In this document: positions 2,245 to 11,316 of the stretch, in pieces
How positions within the stretch are numbered: position 1 is the first letter of the stretch
Layout of the letters: every line of letters starts with the position of its first letter
From: Candidatus Nanobsidianus stetteri
Lineage (GTDB): Archaea; Nanobdellota; Nanobdellia; Nanobdellales; Nanobdellaceae
Length of the DNA stretch: 32,000 nucleotides
Assembly (NCBI GenBank): GCA_000387965.1
Contig: APJZ01000001.1
Coordinates: 30,001 to 62,000, forward strand
Reading direction: 5' to 3'
The notes under the pieces: model-generated
Told to the model about the DNA's origin: nothing
Database searches by the model: none
What the model saw: the letters and a program-made list of their open reading frames with translations, nothing else
Program-made: the position numbers and the translations under genes

Positions 2245-3549
2245 CTAATATAAAATAATAAATACTACAACGCCAACTACTATTATAATAACCCAAATCG
2301 GTATTGAACTAAATAAAGATTTATTTGATGTAGTACTTTGTATTGAATTATAAGATGTATTAGAAGTTGATATTGTGGAATTATTAGAAGTATTATTTAT
2401 AGTATTATTAGTTATATTAATTGTTGTTATATTAGTATATTGACTTATTTGATAAGGCAATGGTGTTATTGCCATATATATTGAACCTTGACCAGTTGAA
2501 ATATTATTTAATCCAAACCATGCTAAATAAAGATCATTATTTAAAATTGATGCCTTTGGAATTATTGTAAACTGTGTTGTATAATTAATAATTGGTTGTA
2601 ATTCTGTACCATTCCAATAATATATACTTAATAAACCAGGTCTCCATGCAATTATAACATATCCATTATTATATAATATTGGAAATGCACTTTCATATAT
2701 TGGTAAATTCAATGTTAAATTTTGATTAATTGTTAATACTCCATTATAAAATTGATATAAAGAATTACCAACAAAACCAATATATGTTGTATTTACAAAT
2801 TCAATACTTCCATTGTTCATGTTTACTAAAGCAATAGTTCCATTTAAAAATTGAACAGTAACCAAACCATTATTTGCAGAAAGAATATCAAGAATACCCG
2901 GAATATTTAAAGATTTAATAACATTGCCTGAAAGTGTTAATTCTTCAAGTATTGTATTATTATATGTAAGGGATAATGTAGGTTCATAAACTAAATATAT
3001 ATAATTTCCATCACTAGCATAACTTAATGCATCACCATTGTTTGTTAAATTAATAACAGGACCCCAAACATTATTATTTAATATTGAAGCTTGAAGAAGA
3101 ATTGTTAAATTATTTAAAATAGGCAATATTTCACTAGTTGATGTTGTATTTGATGTAATATTCATAATGGCAAAATTACTAGGGGTTGGTGGTGTACCAG
3201 CCCATAACATCATTAATGATCCATTATTTAATTCAACTAATAATGGACTATCTTCTCCTAAATCATTGAAATTTGGTAAAGGTGCATTCATTTCTTCAGT
3301 TCCATTAAATATAACACCATTAATAATATTTACACCTGATGGAGATTCTTCAGTATAATAAATATAAACAAGACCATTATAACTAGTTATTGAAAATCCA
3401 TTACCAAAACTAGTATTATTAGTTATAATAATAATTGACGTATTTGTATATTGTTGTCCATTTAAATTTGTCTATGCCATAATTTTTGTATTCAACATTA
3501 TTAAAAATAATATAAAAAATATAACTATTGCTTTAATTTTATTTTTCAT
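2245..3549 (-). pseudogene. Surface (glyco)protein gene interrupted by one in-frame TAG: signal peptide, repeat-rich beta-type ectodomain, Ser/Thr/Asn stalk and C-terminal TM anchor
   Basis: The ATG at 3549 encodes MKNKIKAIVIFFILFLIMLNTKIMA, followed by TAG at 3474..3472. The same frame then stays open for 60 more codons (TNLNGQQYTNTSIIIITNNTSFGNGFSITSYNGLVYIYYTEESPSGVNIINGVIFNGTEE) straight into the track ORF 2245..3291 (MNAPLPNF...). 3549-3291=258, which is divisible by 3. The C-terminus is NITTINITNNTINNTSNNSTISTSNTSYNSIQSTTSNKS followed by the TM segment IPIWVIIIVVGVVVFIILY. Recurrent motifs of the form NG-x-hydrophobic strand suggest a propeller or beta-sandwich repeat. Confidence 0.6.
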
Positions 3550-3640
3550 ATAATTTTTTAGTAATTATTATTTTTAAGTATTATAGTTATTAAAAATTTA
3601 TTATAAAAAATTAATAAAGTCCAAGATTTTTATAATTGGT
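3550..3640. promoter_or_regulatory. Divergent promoter region between the interrupted surface-protein gene (-) and the nine-gene operon (+)
   Basis: 91-bp AT-only spacer. TATA-like TTTATTATAAAAAA (about 3598-3610) lies ~30-40 nt upstream of ATG 3641. A TATA-like element around 3571-3586 lies ~25-30 nt upstream of the - strand ATG at 3549. Assignment is by position only. Confidence 0.4.
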
Positions 3641-4843
3641 ATGAAATCTATAAGCGATAGTGTAATAGAACTTATTATTGCAATTATTATTATAATATTT
3701 GTAATAATTTTTTTCTTTAGCGCATTAAAAGGTCTTAGTTATGCTGGTAGACCAGAAGCAAAATTTGGATATGCATTAGCAGGAAGTATAAGTTTTATGA
3801 TAAATCCAGTAGCACAGGGAATATCTGATGCTGCAACAATTGCAAATGATGTATTAATAGGGGTTTTTGTTGCTGCAACTGTTGCTGGTATTGTTTCTGG
3901 AATTAAAGCAAATTATGACGAGAATGTACAGTTTTTAGAGAGTATAGGATATGACGAAGAAGCTATACAGAATATAAATAATAAATATCTGCTATTTGAA
4001 GATATTGAAAATGGAGGTTTCCCAACAGATAAAATTGCGTCTGGTATTGTAAATGCATATAAAACCACATTTTTAAATCCATTGGGTGCAAGTTTATTGG
4101 GAGGAACACTTGGTTTAGATGCTATATCATATTTATTAAATAATTTAGCACATTCAATGCAAGCACCAATTTTATATTATTTAGTTCCAGAAGGTGTAGT
4201 AGCTGTGAATTTAAGTAATATTGGTAATGCTCAAGTAAATGAAATGCTTAATGATTTAAATCAATCATATGCAAATTATATAGAACAAAACAATATTTGT
4301 AGTAATCCAACGTCATCAGAATGTCAAAATTTATATGCAACATATTTAATTGCAAAATATTTATTCTATACATATGGAGAAACATTAGGACAGAGTGTAA
4401 CTATCTCAGGTAATCATAATGAATATGCGATATTATTATTTGACTATAACAGTGATTATAGTGTTACATTAAATGATGTTTTATGTATGTTAGAAATGAT
4501 GAAATATTATAATCAAGTTCCATTAGAAGTTATGTATGGAAATAATACAATATATAATAGTAATAATAATATTGCTTGTCAGGTTTTAAGTAATGTGTAT
4601 TCCAGTGCAATGTCTTCAAATCCTCAAGATGCAAATAATGTATATAATAAATTATTAGTAAATTCATATGAAGTAGATCAAAGTGGTAATGCTAACCAAT
4701 TAAGTTCAACTTCAAATAATCCAGAACCAAATGATGTTATAATTATCCCAGCTATACAACCACCAGATGGTATAATAATTGAATATACATATGAAGGAGG
4801 AAATAGAGCAATCTTATTAACATCAATTTCAGGTGAAAGTTAA
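3641..4843 (+). CDS. Operon gene 1: orphan membrane-anchored surface protein (two N-terminal hydrophobic segments and a ~300-aa ectodomain)
   Basis: 400-aa ORF. The N-terminus is MKSISDSVIELIIAIIIIIFVIIFFFSAL, with a second hydrophobic segment VLIGVFVAATVAGIVSGI. The remainder is N/Y-rich with sequons and 4 Cys. No family recognised. Confidence 0.7.
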   Translation: MKSISDSVIELIIAIIIIIFVIIFFFSALKGLSYAGRPEAKFGYALAGSISFMINPVAQGISDAATIANDVLIGVFVAATVAGIVSGIKANYDENVQFLESIGYDEEAIQNINNKYLLFEDIENGGFPTDKIASGIVNAYKTTFLNPLGASLLGGTLGLDAISYLLNNLAHSMQAPILYYLVPEGVVAVNLSNIGNAQVNEMLNDLNQSYANYIEQNNICSNPTSSECQNLYATYLIAKYLFYTYGETLGQSVTISGNHNEYAILLFDYNSDYSVTLNDVLCMLEMMKYYNQVPLEVMYGNNTIYNSNNNIACQVLSNVYSSAMSSNPQDANNVYNKLLVNSYEVDQSGNANQLSSTSNNPEPNDVIIIPAIQPPDGIIIEYTYEGGNRAILLTSISGES

Positions 4844-4853
4844 TTTATAAATT
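4844..4853 (+). promoter_or_regulatory. TATA-box-like element (TTTATAAATT) positioned for a leaderless transcript starting at ATG 4874
   Basis: TTTATAAATT follows the stop of gene 1 directly. Its centre is ~26 nt upstream of the ATG at 4874, which is the classic archaeal TATA-to-TSS spacing. Confidence 0.4.
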
Positions 4854-4873
4854 GCAAAGTTTTTAGATTTATA

Positions 4874-5020
4874 ATGGAAACTGGAGAACTTTTAAAGATA
4901 ATCCTTGCATTAATATTCATTATATTAATATTAATATTTGTTTTTATTGTATTAGGACCAAAATTAGGGCTAAATATAAATATATTTGCTCAATATCAAT
5001 TAATAGGAGGAAATGGATAA
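4874..5020 (+). CDS. Operon gene 2 (not in the ORF track): 48-aa hydrophobic pilin-like small protein
   Basis: Translated by hand as METGELLKIILALIFIILILIFVFIVLGPKLGLNINIFAQYQLIGGNG*. The TAA at 5018-5020 overlaps the next start (ATGGATAA). A short polar N-terminus ending in Gly precedes a ~24-aa hydrophobic helix. GGAGG at 5006-5010 serves the downstream gene. Confidence 0.55.
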   Translation: METGELLKIILALIFIILILIFVFIVLGPKLGLNINIFAQYQLIGGNG

Positions 5021-5198
5021 AAAAACACAAGTAAATACATTTTTAGTAGCAATAATATTACTTGTTGTTGCTTTATTATTGTTAGCAATATTTATGTACT
5101 TTTATTTTAAAGGAGGAGTAAATTTATTTAATAGTATACCTCAAACAAATGGCACAAGTGTTGTAAATAATATAAATAGTAACAACTATGGAGGCTGA
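5013..5198 (+). CDS. Operon gene 3: 61-aa small single-helix (pilin-like) protein
   Basis: The sequence is MDKKTQVNTFLVAIILLVVALLLLAIFMYFYFKGG... followed by a polar N/S-rich tail. GGAGG lies 3 nt upstream of the start. The gene overlaps gene 2 by 8 nt and gene 4 by 11 nt. Confidence 0.6.
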   Translation: MDKKTQVNTFLVAIILLVVALLLLAIFMYFYFKGGVNLFNSIPQTNGTSVVNNINSNNYGG

Positions 5199-5349
5199 TA
5201 ATTCAATAAATTTTTTAATATTTTTAATTATTGCAATAGTAATAATTGTTTTAGCAATAATATTTTATTATTATATGGTAAGTCATTCCATGCAAGTAAA
5301 TGTAACAATCGTAGGATATAAAATATTAAATCAATCTGGATTAGGATAA
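5188..5349 (+). CDS. Operon gene 4 (not in the ORF track): 53-aa small single-helix (pilin-like) protein
   Basis: Translated by hand as MEADNSINFLIFLIIAIVIIVLAIIFYYYMVSHSMQVNVTIVGYKILNQSGLG*. The TAA is at 5347-5349, and the next gene starts at 5351. Confidence 0.55.
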   Translation: MEADNSINFLIFLIIAIVIIVLAIIFYYYMVSHSMQVNVTIVGYKILNQSGLG

Positions 5350-5350
5350 T

Positions 5351-6295
5351 ATGAGAGGAGATTTTCTTAGAATAATTTTTGATATAATAGTATTAATCGT
5401 ATTGGCAGTTTTAATATACTTTATTATTGTGACATTTATTGGAGTTGCTATGGGAAATGAGGCAAGATATATTGGATATTTAAATGCAATTGCTAGTGAT
5501 ATAAATAATCCAGGTAATTCAGGTAATGGAGAAGTATTTATAAATAATTATGATTATAATTATGTTTTTGTATTAACAAATAATAATAATGCATGGTATT
5601 TGCAATTATATCATTGTTTTCCTCCAAATCAGGTTGTAGGTCTCTTATCTGTTAAAGTAGTATATTGGAATGTTTCTACGACAGATAATGGAAATACTAT
5701 TATATTTGCACCAGCATTGGCATTTTGTAAATTAGTAAAACAAGAATCATTAAATGTAAATCAAATAAATATAAACATACAAGGATTAAATGATAATGCT
5801 GGTTTATTAGCATATTCTAATAATGAGAACTTAGGTATCTTTCAAATTTTTGTAAATATAATTGATAATTTCTTTCCAGGATCGTCTTCGTTCTTTCTTA
5901 CTATAGTAAATGATACAACAATAACTTGTAATAGTAATGGATGTAAATTTACGTCAACAATCAATGAAAATGGCAATACATATCAAGAAAGTGGTTATAT
6001 ATATTGTGATCCAAATCCAAATGTAAATACAAATAATAATAATTTGCCATATAACCCAGCAGATTGTGTAGAATTATCAGGATTTCCACAGAATCCTCAA
6101 ATACAGCTCAGTAATCTTGAAGGTGAGATAATAAGTTCTGAAACATTTACTTCTCTCATTCAACTATTCCAAACAAACTTTCCATTATTATATTTTGCAG
6201 GTTCTTTACCACCAACAGTAATGGATATAGAAGTAAATAGCAATGGAAATACAGCAAATATTAATATATACATAGGAGAAACTGTTTCTACATAA
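5351..6295 (+). CDS. Operon gene 5: orphan N-terminally anchored surface protein
   Basis: 314 aa. The N-terminus is MRG-DFLRIIFDIIVLIVLAVLIYFIIVTFIG (basic residue, Gly, then a hydrophobic helix carrying early acidic residues). The ectodomain is N-rich with sequons and 6 Cys. One nt separates it from each flanking gene. Confidence 0.7.
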   Translation: MRGDFLRIIFDIIVLIVLAVLIYFIIVTFIGVAMGNEARYIGYLNAIASDINNPGNSGNGEVFINNYDYNYVFVLTNNNNAWYLQLYHCFPPNQVVGLLSVKVVYWNVSTTDNGNTIIFAPALAFCKLVKQESLNVNQININIQGLNDNAGLLAYSNNENLGIFQIFVNIIDNFFPGSSSFFLTIVNDTTITCNSNGCKFTSTINENGNTYQESGYIYCDPNPNVNTNNNNLPYNPADCVELSGFPQNPQIQLSNLEGEIISSETFTSLIQLFQTNFPLLYFAGSLPPTVMDIEVNSNGNTANINIYIGETVST

Positions 6296-6296
6296 T

Positions 6297-7409
6297 ATGG
6301 ATGTTGATGGATTATTAGATGCAATAGTAGCATCAATATTTTTAATAATTGTATCATTAATAGGAATATATTTTCCATATATTGTTGCAAGAATATTTGG
6401 TACACATAATCCTTATTTAATATTGGAAGTTGCTGGTTTTATTACATATTCAACATCAGAACCTGGAAATATGACGGCAGCATTTTTAGTAACAAATGCC
6501 CCAGACTTCTTTTATGAATTTAGGATAATTCCTCCAATACAATCATCCGCTCTGTTTATTCCTTTATATAATAATAATGACTTTTTAGTTAGTATTGGAG
6601 AATGTTATGTAAATAATCTATGGCAACAACTTGCAGATGATGCATTAAATTCTTTTTTGACTGAGGTATTTTCATATTTACCAGGATTAAAGAATGGTGT
6701 TATTACAAAACCTTTAGCAGATGTTTTAAATGATGTATTTAAATCTTCATCACAAATTGCAAAACAAACGGCAATAGGTGCTGCTGGCATGTATGGATTA
6801 TATACATATCAATCTACACTTTTACAATACACATCTGGAAATTATAATATATGGGGAGACATTTTTAATGCATTGCAATCTTCTGTGGGACCCACCTTAT
6901 GGTCTACTGTAGAATTTACCATAATGCAAGTTGGAGATATGATATTAGATGAAACTTTACCACCTCCAGCCGATTTTGTAGCTGGTTTTGCATTTAATTT
7001 AGCATTTACTTCAGCAATTACTTTATATCAATATTGGCAAGATACATCGAATCCATATGCTAGTTGCTATTATAATCAATTTATACAACAAAACACTAAA
7101 TTTCTCTTTTTGTCAATTCCAAATGGGGAATATACAGTATATCAACCATATTTAACATTAACAATATATTATAATCCAAACTTTACATTTTATAATGGAT
7201 GTAATGATTATTATTTATGTGATACAAGTTTTACATACATTTATGACCCACAAGATAATTCACAGGATAACATATTCAAACTAGATTTGGGAAATGTAGA
7301 TAATAATGGTAATCAAGTATTTCCAGAGTTTATTATTTTATCAAAAGTAGGTATGCAATCTGGAGGCCCATATTTAAATGTATCAATATTATCTTCTACA
7401 TTATCATGA
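6297..7409 (+). CDS. Operon gene 6: orphan N-terminally anchored surface protein
   Basis: 370 aa. The N-terminus MDVDG-LLDAIVASIFLIIVSLIGIYF fits the [DEKR][GA]-hydrophobic class III-like pattern best of the set. It has 4 Cys. An ATGA overlap links it to the next gene. Confidence 0.7.
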   Translation: MDVDGLLDAIVASIFLIIVSLIGIYFPYIVARIFGTHNPYLILEVAGFITYSTSEPGNMTAAFLVTNAPDFFYEFRIIPPIQSSALFIPLYNNNDFLVSIGECYVNNLWQQLADDALNSFLTEVFSYLPGLKNGVITKPLADVLNDVFKSSSQIAKQTAIGAAGMYGLYTYQSTLLQYTSGNYNIWGDIFNALQSSVGPTLWSTVEFTIMQVGDMILDETLPPPADFVAGFAFNLAFTSAITLYQYWQDTSNPYASCYYNQFIQQNTKFLFLSIPNGEYTVYQPYLTLTIYYNPNFTFYNGCNDYYLCDTSFTYIYDPQDNSQDNIFKLDLGNVDNNGNQVFPEFIILSKVGMQSGGPYLNVSILSSTLS

Positions 7410-8272
7410 GGTCATTATCTTTAAAAGATATAATTGAATATATAGCCGCTGCGGTTGTTATAATATTCGCATTTTTTATTGTAGCAATATTATATGCATT
7501 ATTTAATATTGAATCGTATTCTGAATATACCTATCAACAATTTACAAATAGTCTATTAATTGATAGATTAAATTATTGTTTATATGAAGATACAGGAAAT
7601 CCCTTATTATTATTTTATGCTCCAAATCCAAATATTATTAATGAATATAATAATGTATATCAACAGTGTTTTATGAATGTATCAGGAACGTTATATTATT
7701 TTATTAATGAATCAAATCAGTCAAATGAAGCTATATATACTTATCTAAATCTCTCTTATGACGATTATATATATTTCTTTTTCTATGATATTAACAATAT
7801 AAATTATTCATATTCTTATGATCCATATAACCTTAGTTTTGAAAATAATATAAGTGTTAATCCATATTATGTTGCATATAATATTTATAATGTAAGTTAT
7901 ACATACGAAAATCTACCATCTTTAAACCAATTTTTAATCAATTATTTCTATAATTATAGTTTATATATATTTAATAAGACAGAATATATGTATCAAAACT
8001 ACCAATTTATAAACAATACAAAAATACTTAATACTGTTGCAAATGTAAAAGCTGGAAATTACAAAACTAAATATTATTATAATGAGGTATATATTCAACC
8101 AATAGCATCATATTATATTACTCTACCAGAATATGATAGTGGAGAACCAGTAATAGTATCTTTATATGGTGTAGGAAAACTTTATATGAATGGTATATAT
8201 AATGAGACATGTAATATAATTGCTGGAGGCCAAATAAATATATCTTCATGTCAAATTAATCAAATACAATGA
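7406..8272 (+). CDS. Operon gene 7: orphan N-terminally anchored, heavily sequon-decorated protein
   Basis: 288 aa. The N-terminus is MRSLSLKDIIEYIAAAVVIIFAFFIVAILYALF. I count 13 N-x-S/T sequons by eye and 4 Cys. ATGA overlaps occur at both ends. Confidence 0.7.
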   Translation: MRSLSLKDIIEYIAAAVVIIFAFFIVAILYALFNIESYSEYTYQQFTNSLLIDRLNYCLYEDTGNPLLLFYAPNPNIINEYNNVYQQCFMNVSGTLYYFINESNQSNEAIYTYLNLSYDDYIYFFFYDINNINYSYSYDPYNLSFENNISVNPYYVAYNIYNVSYTYENLPSLNQFLINYFYNYSLYIFNKTEYMYQNYQFINNTKILNTVANVKAGNYKTKYYYNEVYIQPIASYYITLPEYDSGEPVIVSLYGVGKLYMNGIYNETCNIIAGGQINISSCQINQIQ

Positions 8273-8751
8273 AAATACAAATTGGTTTCTTTTTATCATT
8301 TATTGCTGCAGTAATTATTGTTATAGTTTTACTATTTATATTTTTATTTAACATATTTTCATATGGAAATCCAACACTAAATAATATTGCAAGTTTAAAT
8401 GCTGTTGGTATTGAATATAAATCTGCAAATGGTTTTTTAGATTCTTTAATTTATTTTGATAATGTAACTGTACCGGTAATAGATATATATGCAGGATTTT
8501 ATAATAATACAGCATTGGATAATTATATAATAAATGAATTAGCGAATGAAGAATTATATTATTTAAATAATTCTACTACAATTTTATCATTCTATTTTAA
8601 TAATAATACAATCATTGGTGTATGTCCAAATAAAGAATATATAAATTATGATGTTTATTTAAATGGTGAATCATATACATTCTATGTTTGTCCACCAACA
8701 GTATTATATAATTTTTATGTAAATTATAGTAGTTATATAACTCAAAGTTAA
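8269..8751 (+). CDS. Operon gene 8: orphan N-terminally anchored small surface protein
   Basis: 160 aa. The N-terminus is MKIQIG-FFLSFIAAVIIVIVLLFIFLF. It has 2 Cys and several sequons (NVT, NNT, NNS, NNT, NYS). Confidence 0.7.
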   Translation: MKIQIGFFLSFIAAVIIVIVLLFIFLFNIFSYGNPTLNNIASLNAVGIEYKSANGFLDSLIYFDNVTVPVIDIYAGFYNNTALDNYIINELANEELYYLNNSTTILSFYFNNNTIIGVCPNKEYINYDVYLNGESYTFYVCPPTVLYNFYVNYSSYITQS

Positions 8752-8776
8752 TAATTTTAAAATTTATTGAATTTAT

Positions 8777-10264
8777 ATGAAAACATCTTTAGCACCAGTA
8801 GCATTATTTGTAGGAGTAATAATTTTAGTTCTCTTTGGTATATTTTACTTAAATTCTCAGATTCAACTTGCAACTCAATCTTTAAAATATTTAAGTGAAG
8901 ATTATATTGCATATCAGGGATTTTTATATATATTGTTTGTTTATATTCCATTTGATATTAGGTATAATTTATTAAATAATCTTTTTACAAATATTTTTTC
9001 AGGATCTACATATAATATAAATTATGTATTTGGAAATAATGTTCCAAATTATTATTCTCAATGCGAAATTCCTTTTTTATTTAATCTAACAAATATAGAA
9101 AATAACGGAAATAATTATAATGTAATTTATTCATTATGTGTTCCAGTAATTCCTTTAAATAATGTAAATAATTATCAAAATATAGAAAATATATTTTTTA
9201 ATATTGGAAGTACCGTAAAAAAAGATTTAAATCAAGAAATTGAATATTTAAATGGAAATTTAAATTTTAAACATGCAAATTTCTCATATCAGGATTTTTA
9301 TTATGATGGTTCTAATAATTTTATATTAGCAAATCCCCAATATTCTTTCTTTGTATTAAATAAATATGAAAGAAATTTATTTTTTCCACAATTAAATAAT
9401 CAAATAGATTATTCAATATATCCCTTTTTATTATATTATAATGAATTAATCGATTATCTATATAATCAAACATTTCAGTTTATATATTATAATTTAACAA
9501 ATCAATCGGATTATATATATTTATATCAAAATGCATATTCTGAAGAGACAATTGGAGACAATTTATATTTAAATTTTTCATTTAATAATCCATATTATTA
9601 TGTTCTAGATCTATATACATCTCAACTTTTACCAGTAGAATATCCAAACATTACAAATGTAACAATTGCAATACCATGTGAATCGGTAGGACAAATTGTA
9701 AATAATCAATGTATAGTAAATAATATATATAGTGAATATATGCAAGAATGTTTAAATAATACAAGTGCTATTTTATCCAAGTTAAATTATCAAGTATTAA
9801 ATAAAATCAATATATTCAATGGATATTGGTATAATATAACTGGTGTAAATATTATCAATGAAAAAAATGTAGAAGTTGATAAAAATTTTGTGGAAAATAT
9901 TTTAGAAAATTATACATATTATACTGACGGATACTATCCGGCTTTAATACCTGTAGATATTCAGATAAATTATAATAATGTAAGTTGCTCTATAAATAAT
10001 GAAACATTACAATTTGGTCCTTATACAGATTCTTTTGATTGTTCATTATCATTAGTAATTATTAATTCATTAAGTTCATGTATAGTTGAATCCGAATGTT
10101 ATAATAATAATGGAAATTATTATTTTAATGCTACATGTAACATTTCAGAAGCATATGTAAATAATCAATTTACATACAATTATTATTTATATGAATTTGT
10201 AAAAATAAATGATGAAACAATGAATAATTATTGTGATAATTCATATTGTTATATAATAGGATAG
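8777..10264 (+). CDS. Operon gene 9: large orphan N-terminally anchored surface protein with a Cys-rich C-terminal region
   Basis: 495 aa. The N-terminus is MKTSLA-PVALFVGVIILVLFGIFYL. It has 12 Cys, seven of them in the last ~110 residues, and many sequons. The ORF ends at TAG 10262-10264 and overlaps the convergent taw3 gene by 24 nt. Confidence 0.7.
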   Translation: MKTSLAPVALFVGVIILVLFGIFYLNSQIQLATQSLKYLSEDYIAYQGFLYILFVYIPFDIRYNLLNNLFTNIFSGSTYNINYVFGNNVPNYYSQCEIPFLFNLTNIENNGNNYNVIYSLCVPVIPLNNVNNYQNIENIFFNIGSTVKKDLNQEIEYLNGNLNFKHANFSYQDFYYDGSNNFILANPQYSFFVLNKYERNLFFPQLNNQIDYSIYPFLLYYNELIDYLYNQTFQFIYYNLTNQSDYIYLYQNAYSEETIGDNLYLNFSFNNPYYYVLDLYTSQLLPVEYPNITNVTIAIPCESVGQIVNNQCIVNNIYSEYMQECLNNTSAILSKLNYQVLNKINIFNGYWYNITGVNIINEKNVEVDKNFVENILENYTYYTDGYYPALIPVDIQINYNNVSCSINNETLQFGPYTDSFDCSLSLVIINSLSSCIVESECYNNNGNYYFNATCNISEAYVNNQFTYNYYLYEFVKINDETMNNYCDNSYCYIIG

Positions 10265-10842: not shown

Positions 10843-11316
10843 ATGGATAGAGAAAAGATAATATTAAATATATTATTTCTAGTATTTTCTATACCAGTAA
10901 TTTATTTAATATATTATTCATATTCAACATATTTCGTTGGAAATAAGATGGTAAATCCTGAAAATATATATAATTTATATATATCAAATTTTAGTGTAAA
11001 TGGAAATTATTTTTCCTTTAATGTAAATAATCCAAATAACTATTCTGTAGAAATATATTTCTCATATTTGGGGTTAAAAAATTCATATCAAACATCATCA
11101 ATAATAACTTCCGGAAATTTTTTGCAAAATATATATATAATACAACCAGAAAGTCATATTACATTGCAATATAATTTTGAATTGGATGATCAAACAAGAT
11201 TAACAATTCTTCAATGGGAAAAACTCGGCGGAATTTTATATTTAACATTATATTATTCATCTGTAGAAAATAATTCTATTAGCGGAATAATAAATTATCA
11301 AGTAGAAAAAAGTTAG
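10843..11316 (+). CDS. N-terminally anchored small beta-sandwich protein, tentatively LEA_2/WHy-like
   Basis: 157 aa. The N-terminal TM segment is ILNILFLVFSIPVIYLIYY. The following segment ...FSVNGNYFSFNVNNPNNYSVEI... resembles the NPN-containing strand pattern of LEA_2/WHy domains (from memory). The start lies 5 nt from the annotated divergent taw3 start. Confidence 0.6.
   Translation: MDREKIILNILFLVFSIPVIYLIYYSYSTYFVGNKMVNPENIYNLYISNFSVNGNYFSFNVNNPNNYSVEIYFSYLGLKNSYQTSSIITSGNFLQNIYIIQPESHITLQYNFELDDQTRLTILQWEKLGGILYLTLYYSSVENNSISGIINYQVEKS

Follow-up and report, generated by a model that had tools for sequence, protein, structure and literature searches.

A conserved nine-gene operon of orphan, N-terminally anchored proteins as a candidate envelope complex of thermophilic Nanobdellales

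Several described systems offer comparisons for a nine-gene cluster found at positions 3641 to 10264 (about 6.6 kb) of a 32,000-nucleotide stretch of DNA (hereafter the window) from Candidatus Nanobsidianus stetteri. Archaeal type IV pilin sets (Epd, Aap, Ups) and pseudopilins (GspG-K) resemble the cluster in being co-transcribed, in having members with a very short and often basic N terminus followed by a long helix and an extracellular domain, and in mixing small with large members, glycosylating the ectodomains, and having any assembly machinery encoded elsewhere. The archaellum accessory proteins FlaF/FlaG and S-layer anchors such as SlaB are likewise membrane anchored, with glycosylated extracellular domains that organize or penetrate the S-layer; the products of the cluster would share this general plan, but no sequence or profile similarity to these proteins was found, and whereas SlaB-type anchors (and the product of the gene immediately upstream of the cluster) carry their helix at the C terminus, the products of the cluster carry it at the N terminus. 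The poxvirus entry-fusion complex is a membrane machine built from about eleven kinds of small single-pass protein; micro-proteins are among them, many members have conserved intramolecular disulfides, and none acts alone. Here the likeness (many small, membrane-anchored, disulfide-bearing subunits, micro-proteins included) would be one of analogy: homology was not indicated (sub-threshold, helix-driven Pfam matches only), and the two differ in domain of life and in membrane context. The setting is shared most closely with the attachment organelle of the Nanobdellales themselves, imaged by cryo-tomography in Nanobdella aerobiophila, YN1, and YN4 and described as a cone, a portal (20 to 25 nm), a barrier, and a tube (7 to 8 nm) (Gaisin 2024, Johnson 2024, 2026 YN4 preprint). 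The cone, seen as a repetitive density on the symbiont membrane's outer face, replaces the S-layer, and the cone-and-portal organelle docks the symbiont to its host and bridges the two cytoplasms (cryo-tomography 2024-2026); its proteins are stated as unidentified in the same three reports.

Our analyses lead us to propose, with moderate confidence, that the products of the nine genes are subunits of a single hetero-oligomeric envelope complex specific to thermophilic Nanobdellales (here Nanobsidianus/Nanopusillus, Nanobdella, YN1, Nanoclepta, and relatives). The 370-amino-acid (aa) product of the sixth gene was identical in sequence to Nst1_044 of Candidatus Nanobsidianus stetteri; the source strain was Nst1, and the nine genes corresponded to Nst1_039 to Nst1_047 (Table 1). 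An original prediction made from this DNA had described nine closely spaced genes on one strand, and the list of open reading frames (ORFs) confirmed every junction: 30 nucleotides (nt) separate genes 1 and 2, genes 2/3 and 3/4 overlap by 8 and 11 nt, genes 4/5 and 5/6 are each 1 nt apart, genes 6/7 and 7/8 overlap at ATGA, and 25 nt separate genes 8 and 9. The genes are a translationally coupled operon, as had been predicted, and the coupling overlaps were retained in Nanobdella. Upstream of gene 1, the intergenic gap measured 91 bp rather than 349 bp, since the neighboring minus-strand gene truly starts at 3549; a scan for bacterial-type promoters and terminators gave counts equal to those in shuffled sequences and is uninformative in an archaeon. 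The operon did not differ in composition from its surroundings (G+C of about 24% across the whole window). Outside the cluster, the window encoded archaeal housekeeping functions (TYW3, DnaG-type primase, class V FBPase, ribosomal protein P1, AlaRS, histone, PCNA, helicase, DNA ligase, and a SecD-like protein) and two tRNAs, both ordinary, to which an Rfam scan of the window added nothing.

All nine genes recurred in unchanged order and at similar sizes in nine further genomes: seven of Nanopusillus/Nanobsidianus, that of Nanobdella aerobiophila MJ1 (MJ1_0042 to 0050), and that of strain YN1 (YN1_3840 onward). Downstream in each of these genomes came a convergent TYW3 gene, an anchored protein of 152 to 157 aa, and the genes for primase, FBPase, and AlaRS. 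Order, sizes, and coupling overlaps were kept between genera that share only 30 to 45% identity, and on this comparison the genes are real, not chance ORFs, and the operon is old. Conservation in relatives was a point on which the original prediction had said it could fail, and the gene order was kept in all nine. Its guess that the DNA came from a genome-reduced ectosymbiont also proved right, the source being an obligately host-attached nanoarchaeon. The same cluster was present at more distant loci (Nanoclepta minutus L011, L014, L018, and L019), where it was preceded by three small N-terminally anchored genes. At L012/L013 and L016/L017 it stood in different surroundings, which shows that it moves as a unit; across the more distant lineages (Nanoclepta L011, and L012-L019), it persisted as a unit through rearranged surroundings.

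The distribution of the operon appeared to be narrow. Only 20 relatives turned up when 1.84 billion representative proteins were searched with a product-6 profile: the named matches were all nanoarchaeal (Nanobdella, YN1, Nanoclepta, and Nanopusillaceae), the others were metagenome sequences, and no match in this search was attributable to Nanoarchaeum equitans. The same operon was found in every genomic context examined for these relatives. A metagenome scan with product 1 yielded 76 further hot-spring loci, nearly all from close Nanopusillus relatives, and no new gene neighborhoods. The operon was seen only in hot-spring nanoarchaea attached to other archaea, namely the thermophilic Nanobdellales. 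One sequence, L095 (1003-1464), carried nothing of product 1 but its conserved loop region, fused to unrelated sequence on a low-coverage contig of higher GC content, and is probably chimeric.

Evolutionary rates differed between the operon and its flanks and also within the operon. The ratio of nonsynonymous to synonymous substitutions (dN/dS) was 0.17 to 0.6 for the operon genes versus 0.04 to 0.13 for the flanking genes, which points to purifying but relaxed selection on constrained, fast-evolving genes, as is typical of surface proteins. The micro-proteins were the most conserved members, with 50 to 74% identity to their Nanobdella and YN1 orthologs (70 to 74% for product 2) versus 28 to 47% for the large products, among which product 6 was the best conserved. 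Products 3 and 4 were encoded as a single ORF of 109 to 120 aa in five basal lineages. The fused forms carried a basic cluster ahead of the second helix (RRMKRS, KRKRG, KKHKRA, RSLKRS, and RRLKRS), and both tails bore sequons in all lineages; such a fusion is Rosetta-stone evidence and argues for joint action of products 3 and 4 in the membrane.

The predicted architecture was the same throughout. As the original prediction had it, every product began with a hydrophobic helix, which was strong in all nine by the Kyte-Doolittle measure (19-residue maximum of 2.7 to 3.9). These stretches were about 25 to 30 residues long, which is the length of an anchor and not that of a cleavable type I signal peptide (a core of about 7 to 15 residues plus a signal-peptidase site). 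Lys and Arg together made up 2 to 3% of ectodomain residues versus 12 to 24% in cytoplasmic neighbors, and the ectodomains were acidic; both properties fit exposure to an acidic outside. Helices and composition together supported the predicted placement of the products as N-terminally anchored and extracellular. Seven or eight of the products in this genome had the N-terminal helix as their sole membrane segment. In product 1, an invariant basic loop, SYAGRPEAKFGYALAGS, joined the first helix to a second, also hydrophobic one, and the protein probably forms a helical hairpin; its ectodomain contained 4 conserved cysteines and an invariant GETLGQ motif.

Cysteines and sequons gave a more detailed picture of the ectodomains. 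The six large products contained 4, 6, 4, 4, 2, and 12 cysteines, exactly the even counts noted earlier, and all of these were conserved across genera in relatives at 30 to 45% identity, in keeping with the suggested extracellular pairing. In product 6, C103 and C257 co-varied (both present or both absent in 17 sequences), which indicates a disulfide between them. Between these two residues lay a Gly-led hydrophobic helix (aa 225 to 251, window positions 6966 to 7049, G-x-x-G ... F-x-x-N-F) that was kept family-wide. A second membrane crossing at this helix was considered and excluded, because the co-varying cysteines on its two sides must share a compartment; the helix looks either membrane active or strongly buried within the extracellular domain. 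Sequon counts were compared with those in composition-preserving shuffles of each product. The earlier statement that sequons are dense in every ectodomain was correct for products 7 (13 observed, the number originally given for this 288-aa product, versus 4.6 expected), 8 (6 versus 2.6), 9 (16 versus 8.6), and 4 (2 versus 0.4) but not for products 1 (3 versus 6.1), 5 (2 versus 6.1), and 6 (3 versus 4.4), which were depleted, as expected of buried interfaces. This split suggests a layering into an inner and an outer part. The tails of the micro-proteins held sequons in every lineage even though the tail sequence itself shifted.

No described relative was found for any of the products. Pfam and NCBIfam recognized no family among the nine, the only near-threshold Pfam result being a weak, sub-threshold match of the 48-aa product 2 to DUF7554; profile searches of PDB sequences were empty; and PHROGs gave no significant match (weakly, phrog_33345 for product 3, E 0.0017, driven by the transmembrane [TM] helix). 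These results agree with the original reading of the set as orphans. AlphaFold models of product 1 (predicted local distance difference test [pLDDT] score of 76.5 overall and about 90 for aa 190 to 400, a C-terminal alpha/beta domain) and of product 6 (pLDDT of 67, moderate confidence) had no match in the PDB (best E of 1.7 and 0.14, respectively), and the product-1 model had none in the BFVD viral structure library (best E of 0.5). By hhalign, the six ectodomains were mutually unrelated (probability of ≤1.2%), with weak similarity of the helix region only between products 2 and 5 and between products 3 and 4. The unrelated ectodomains point to distinct parts, not paralogous variants, and a paralogous expansion of one surface protein was excluded by the same values. 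The set would comprise nine (up to twelve) new protein families in an arrangement without a described counterpart, i.e., the novelty lies at the level of families and organization; a literature search with the locus tags of the operon found no mention of them.

Coupled expression, unrelated subunits, and conserved, partly fused micro-subunits are the features that point to one complex held together by a bundle of N-terminal helices, and the 50 to 74% identity of the micro-proteins is not what would be expected of passive anchors. Joint transcription and coupled translation would supply the subunits in fixed proportion. Each would be held in the cytoplasmic membrane by its N-terminal hydrophobic helix, and these helices would pack into a common bundle that includes the three micro-subunits, two of which would form a hairpin when fused, as in the basal lineages. 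A second helix would be added by product 1 and perhaps by product 6, with the basic loop of product 1 on the cytoplasmic side. The acidic, Lys/Arg-poor, disulfide-bonded ectodomains would then build an extracellular structure, of which the inner part, unglycosylated and rich in interfaces, would consist of products 1, 5, and 6 and the exposed, heavily N-glycosylated outer part of products 7, 8, and 9. The most likely job of such a complex would be that of a specialized surface architecture by which these obligate ectosymbionts contact their hosts, and a role in host contact or attachment is plausible.

Several observations weigh against this proposal. Interaction between the products is a deduction. 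The gene set is not strictly indivisible, since L019 was without gene 1 and L016/L017 were without genes 8 and 9 at the locus. Most of the large subunits carried a signature, [KR][G/A/S] directly ahead of the helix, that suits pilin-type processing no less than it suits static anchoring. Finally, the orthologs in Nanopusillus acidilobi (Nps_00225 to Nps_00255) are all missing from the published proteome of that organism. This last point is weak or uninformative, because the ectodomains are Lys/Arg-poor and offer few tryptic sites; a shortage of such sites also kept the predicted S-layer protein from being detected in that study. On the side of the proposal, 735 of 736 coding sequences were expressed in the transcriptome of Nanobdella (Kato 2023). 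As a separate observation, positions 8689-8953 of L019, in the place of gene 1, held a 36-aa ORF resembling product 2, beside a normal product-2 gene.

The processing signature leads to the main alternative explanation, somewhat unlikely in our estimate, in which the operon is a divergent type IV pilin-like set: most of the products, along with those of the small upstream genes of basal lineages, would be made as prepilins whose leaders are basic and very short, an unrecognized prepilin-type peptidase would trim these leaders, an ATPase/TadC pair encoded elsewhere would build a filament, pseudopilus, or tip complex, and the large glycosylated products would serve as minor pilins or adhesins. 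Counted per lineage, the signature was found in 9 of 10 lineages for product 1, 8 of 10 for product 7, 7 of 11 each for products 5 and 3, 5 of 9 for product 9, and 4 of 9 for product 8; in the small upstream genes it was found in 6 of 11 and 9 of 11, versus 1 of 8 in a neighboring N-anchored control family. Several N termini read KKG-VS, KRS-VS, or KKA-IS, which resembles the archaeal pilin N-terminal consensus. The number of such genes in one operon, Flp-sized micro-subunits among them, and the modestly better conservation of N-terminal segments than of ectodomains in products 1, 5, 6, and 7 also favor pilins. The genomic background is compatible as well: four FlaJ/TadC homologs are reported from these genomes (Jarett et al. 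2018), and nanoarchaea are reported to have pilus-type ATPase/TadC genes without identified pilins (Makarova et al. 2016) and to make archaella despite having no recognizable prepilin peptidase (Makarova 2016).

The same N termini, however, set the operon apart from known type IV pilin and pseudopilin sets. The residue at the putative cleavage site was not an invariant Gly or Ala in any family (G, S, A, N, T, and I were all seen), and products 2 and 6 had acidic N termini with no basic residue in any lineage (signature in 0 of 11 and 0 of 10). The five Gly/Ala sites named in the original prediction (TG-ELLKI, EA-DNSINF, RG-DFLRI, DG-LLDAI, and IG-FFLSF) are present in this genome but were not conserved in relatives, where DG of product 6 was replaced by DE, TG of product 2 by DN, and EA of product 4 by RL or KS; as conserved features they were excluded by the Glu, Asn, Leu, or Ser found in their place. 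A FlaFind-type pattern matched product 6 only, at a site other than the one named and lost in distant relatives. Pfam showed no class III signal, pilin, or archaellin match for the nine products, for 36 product-1 orthologs (E up to 10), or for the small upstream genes, and the models of products 1 and 6, the two on which the proposed fold check was run, resembled no solved pilin or archaellin. The two-helix fusion of products 3 and 4 in five lineages and the second hydrophobic helix of product 1 (aa 64 to 90) are further departures from pilin sets. Nor was an ATPase, platform, or A24 peptidase gene found within 10 kb at 19 loci (L001-L019) or in the window, for which the original prediction had correctly reported the lack of all three, and the annotation of the complete N. 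acidilobi genome lists no prepilin peptidase. The class III pilin-type set, as first written, is not supported by these results, namely cleavage sites that are not conserved, empty profile searches, and two models unlike solved pilins.

It is improbable that the genes form a mere row of independent surface glycoproteins or adhesins with one promoter and one type of anchor among them but no common structure. Such a row would account for the mutually unrelated ectodomains, for evolution faster than that of the housekeeping neighbors, and for the lineages in which gene 1, or genes 8 and 9, are missing, and nanoarchaeal genomes do encode many single-helix “hypothetical external” proteins of high single-nucleotide polymorphism density (Jarett 2018). 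Less easily accommodated are the order, sizes, and overlaps kept across genera at 30 to 45% identity, the conservation of micro-proteins that have no plausible function alone, the fusion of products 3 and 4 in five lineages, and the shortage of sequons that three of the ectodomains show, a pattern to be expected where interfaces are buried. We rejected as highly improbable an integrated virus or viral remnant encoding virion membrane or structural proteins, an alternative raised in the original prediction, because the operon occupied the same chromosomal place, followed by TYW3, DnaG-type primase, FBPase, and AlaRS, in most of the genomes examined, which span several genera (window, L001-L011, L014, L015, L018, and L019), diverged in parallel with its flanks, had the composition of its surroundings, was accompanied in the window by no integrase, att site, or adjacent tRNA, and had no significant match in PHROGs and none in BFVD, leaving in favor of a virus only weak matches driven by TM helices (phrog_33345 and sub-threshold viral membrane-protein Pfam families).

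The proposed envelope complex could be taken one step further and equated with the core of the attachment organelle. Both belong to the same organisms, and the full operon was present in both cone-bearing strains whose genomes are accessible, N. aerobiophila MJ1 and YN1. Presence in these strains is necessary but far from sufficient for such a role, because these genomes encode many other lineage-specific single-helix proteins. In this extended form, which we regard as a long shot, products 1, 5, and 6 together with the helix bundle would be the repeating, unglycosylated lattice that stands in for the S-layer on the symbiont membrane, products 7 to 9 would be the glycosylated side facing the host, and the product-6 helix, clamped by Cys103-Cys257, would act at the portal to engage or perforate the host membrane.

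The Nanobdellales are the best-studied cultured DPANN ectosymbionts, and their genomes measure only 0.6 to 0.77 Mb. A nine-orphan envelope operon has stayed intact across genera. Small genomes that keep a 6.6-kb orphan operon, with no relative of product 6 detectable outside the lineage, make for a short and concrete list of candidates. The operon is a candidate for the organelle or for another host-contact structure and is testable with respect to an open question in DPANN cell biology; a complex of this kind would contribute nine new families of proteins along with an unusual principle of construction, in which many different single-helix subunits, micro-proteins included, are combined. If the operon instead proves to encode a set of divergent pilins, these would be the “missing” partners of the pilus ATPases that stand as orphans in nanoarchaea (Makarova et al. 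2016).

Table 1. Features of the nine-gene operon, its fused forms in basal lineages, and neighboring genes (window positions unless a locus is named)
Feature	Position	Strand	Description
Gene 1 (Nst1_039, 400 aa)	3641..4843	+	N-terminal helix, second hydrophobic helix at aa 64-90, alpha/beta ectodomain
Gene 2 (48-aa micro-protein)	4874..5020	+	Acidic N terminus METGELL, one helix, short tail
Gene 3 (61-aa micro-protein)	5013..5198	+	One helix, charge-free tail with conserved sequon
Gene 4 (53-aa micro-protein)	5188..5349	+	One helix, tail; 2-3 sequons in every lineage
Gene 5 (Nst1_043, 314 aa)	5351..6295	+	N-terminal helix, conserved Asp/Glu at position 11, six conserved Cys
Gene 6 (Nst1_044, 370 aa)	6297..7409	+	Acidic N terminus, helix, invariant Y51/S54/G57 and EFRI motifs
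Gene 7 (Nst1_045, 288 aa)	7406..8272	+	N terminus MRS-LSLKDIIEY, then helix; Tyr/Asn-rich; 4 conserved Cys
Gene 8 (Nst1_046, 160 aa)	8269..8751	+	Conserved QIGFFLS start, helix, 2 conserved Cys
Gene 9 (Nst1_047, 495 aa)	8777..10264	+	N-terminal helix, 16 sequons, about 12 conserved Cys
Presumed operon promoter region	3550..3640	.	91 bp, A+T-rich, TATA-like runs; putative role
Fusion ORFs of products 3 and 4	L011 8849-9178; L014 5544-5888; L016 4577-4939; L018 8927-9283; L019 8953-9297		
Possibly associated giant surface protein, C-terminal end of a product of about 880 aa	71..982	+	N-anchored; association suggested by position only
Upstream C-terminally anchored surface glycoprotein gene	2245-3549	-	22 sequons in 348-aa ORF versus 9.3 expected
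Possibly associated 157-aa N-anchored orphan	10843..11316	+	Always between TYW3 and DnaG-type primase gene

Some neighboring genes might belong to the same system. The window starts inside the gene for a giant N-anchored protein, and relatives had an upstream pair (L002 1898-4722, L010 3932-6483) consisting of a 60- to 62-aa glycosylated single-helix protein that resembles product 4, found as a paralog of gene 4, followed by an N-anchored protein of 780 to 880 aa. In basal lineages, small N-terminally anchored genes lay directly upstream of gene 1. The 157-aa orphan downstream was more conserved than the operon members (60% identity to Nanobdella, dN/dS of 0.10 to 0.16), and neither a family match nor the [KR][GAS] signature was found for it. 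The upstream C-terminally anchored glycoprotein gene had an in-frame TAG (3472-3474) at the end of its signal peptide, where the close relative L002 has Gln (KIMA*TNLNG here versus KIMAQTNLNG in L002); this may reflect a pseudogene, a sequencing error in a single-cell or metagenome assembly, or a strain difference. At the other end of the operon, gene 9 and the convergent TYW3 gene overlapped by 24 nt at their 3′ ends (10241-10264), and a similar convergent overlap was found in Nanobdella (L001 14076-14104) and in other relatives.

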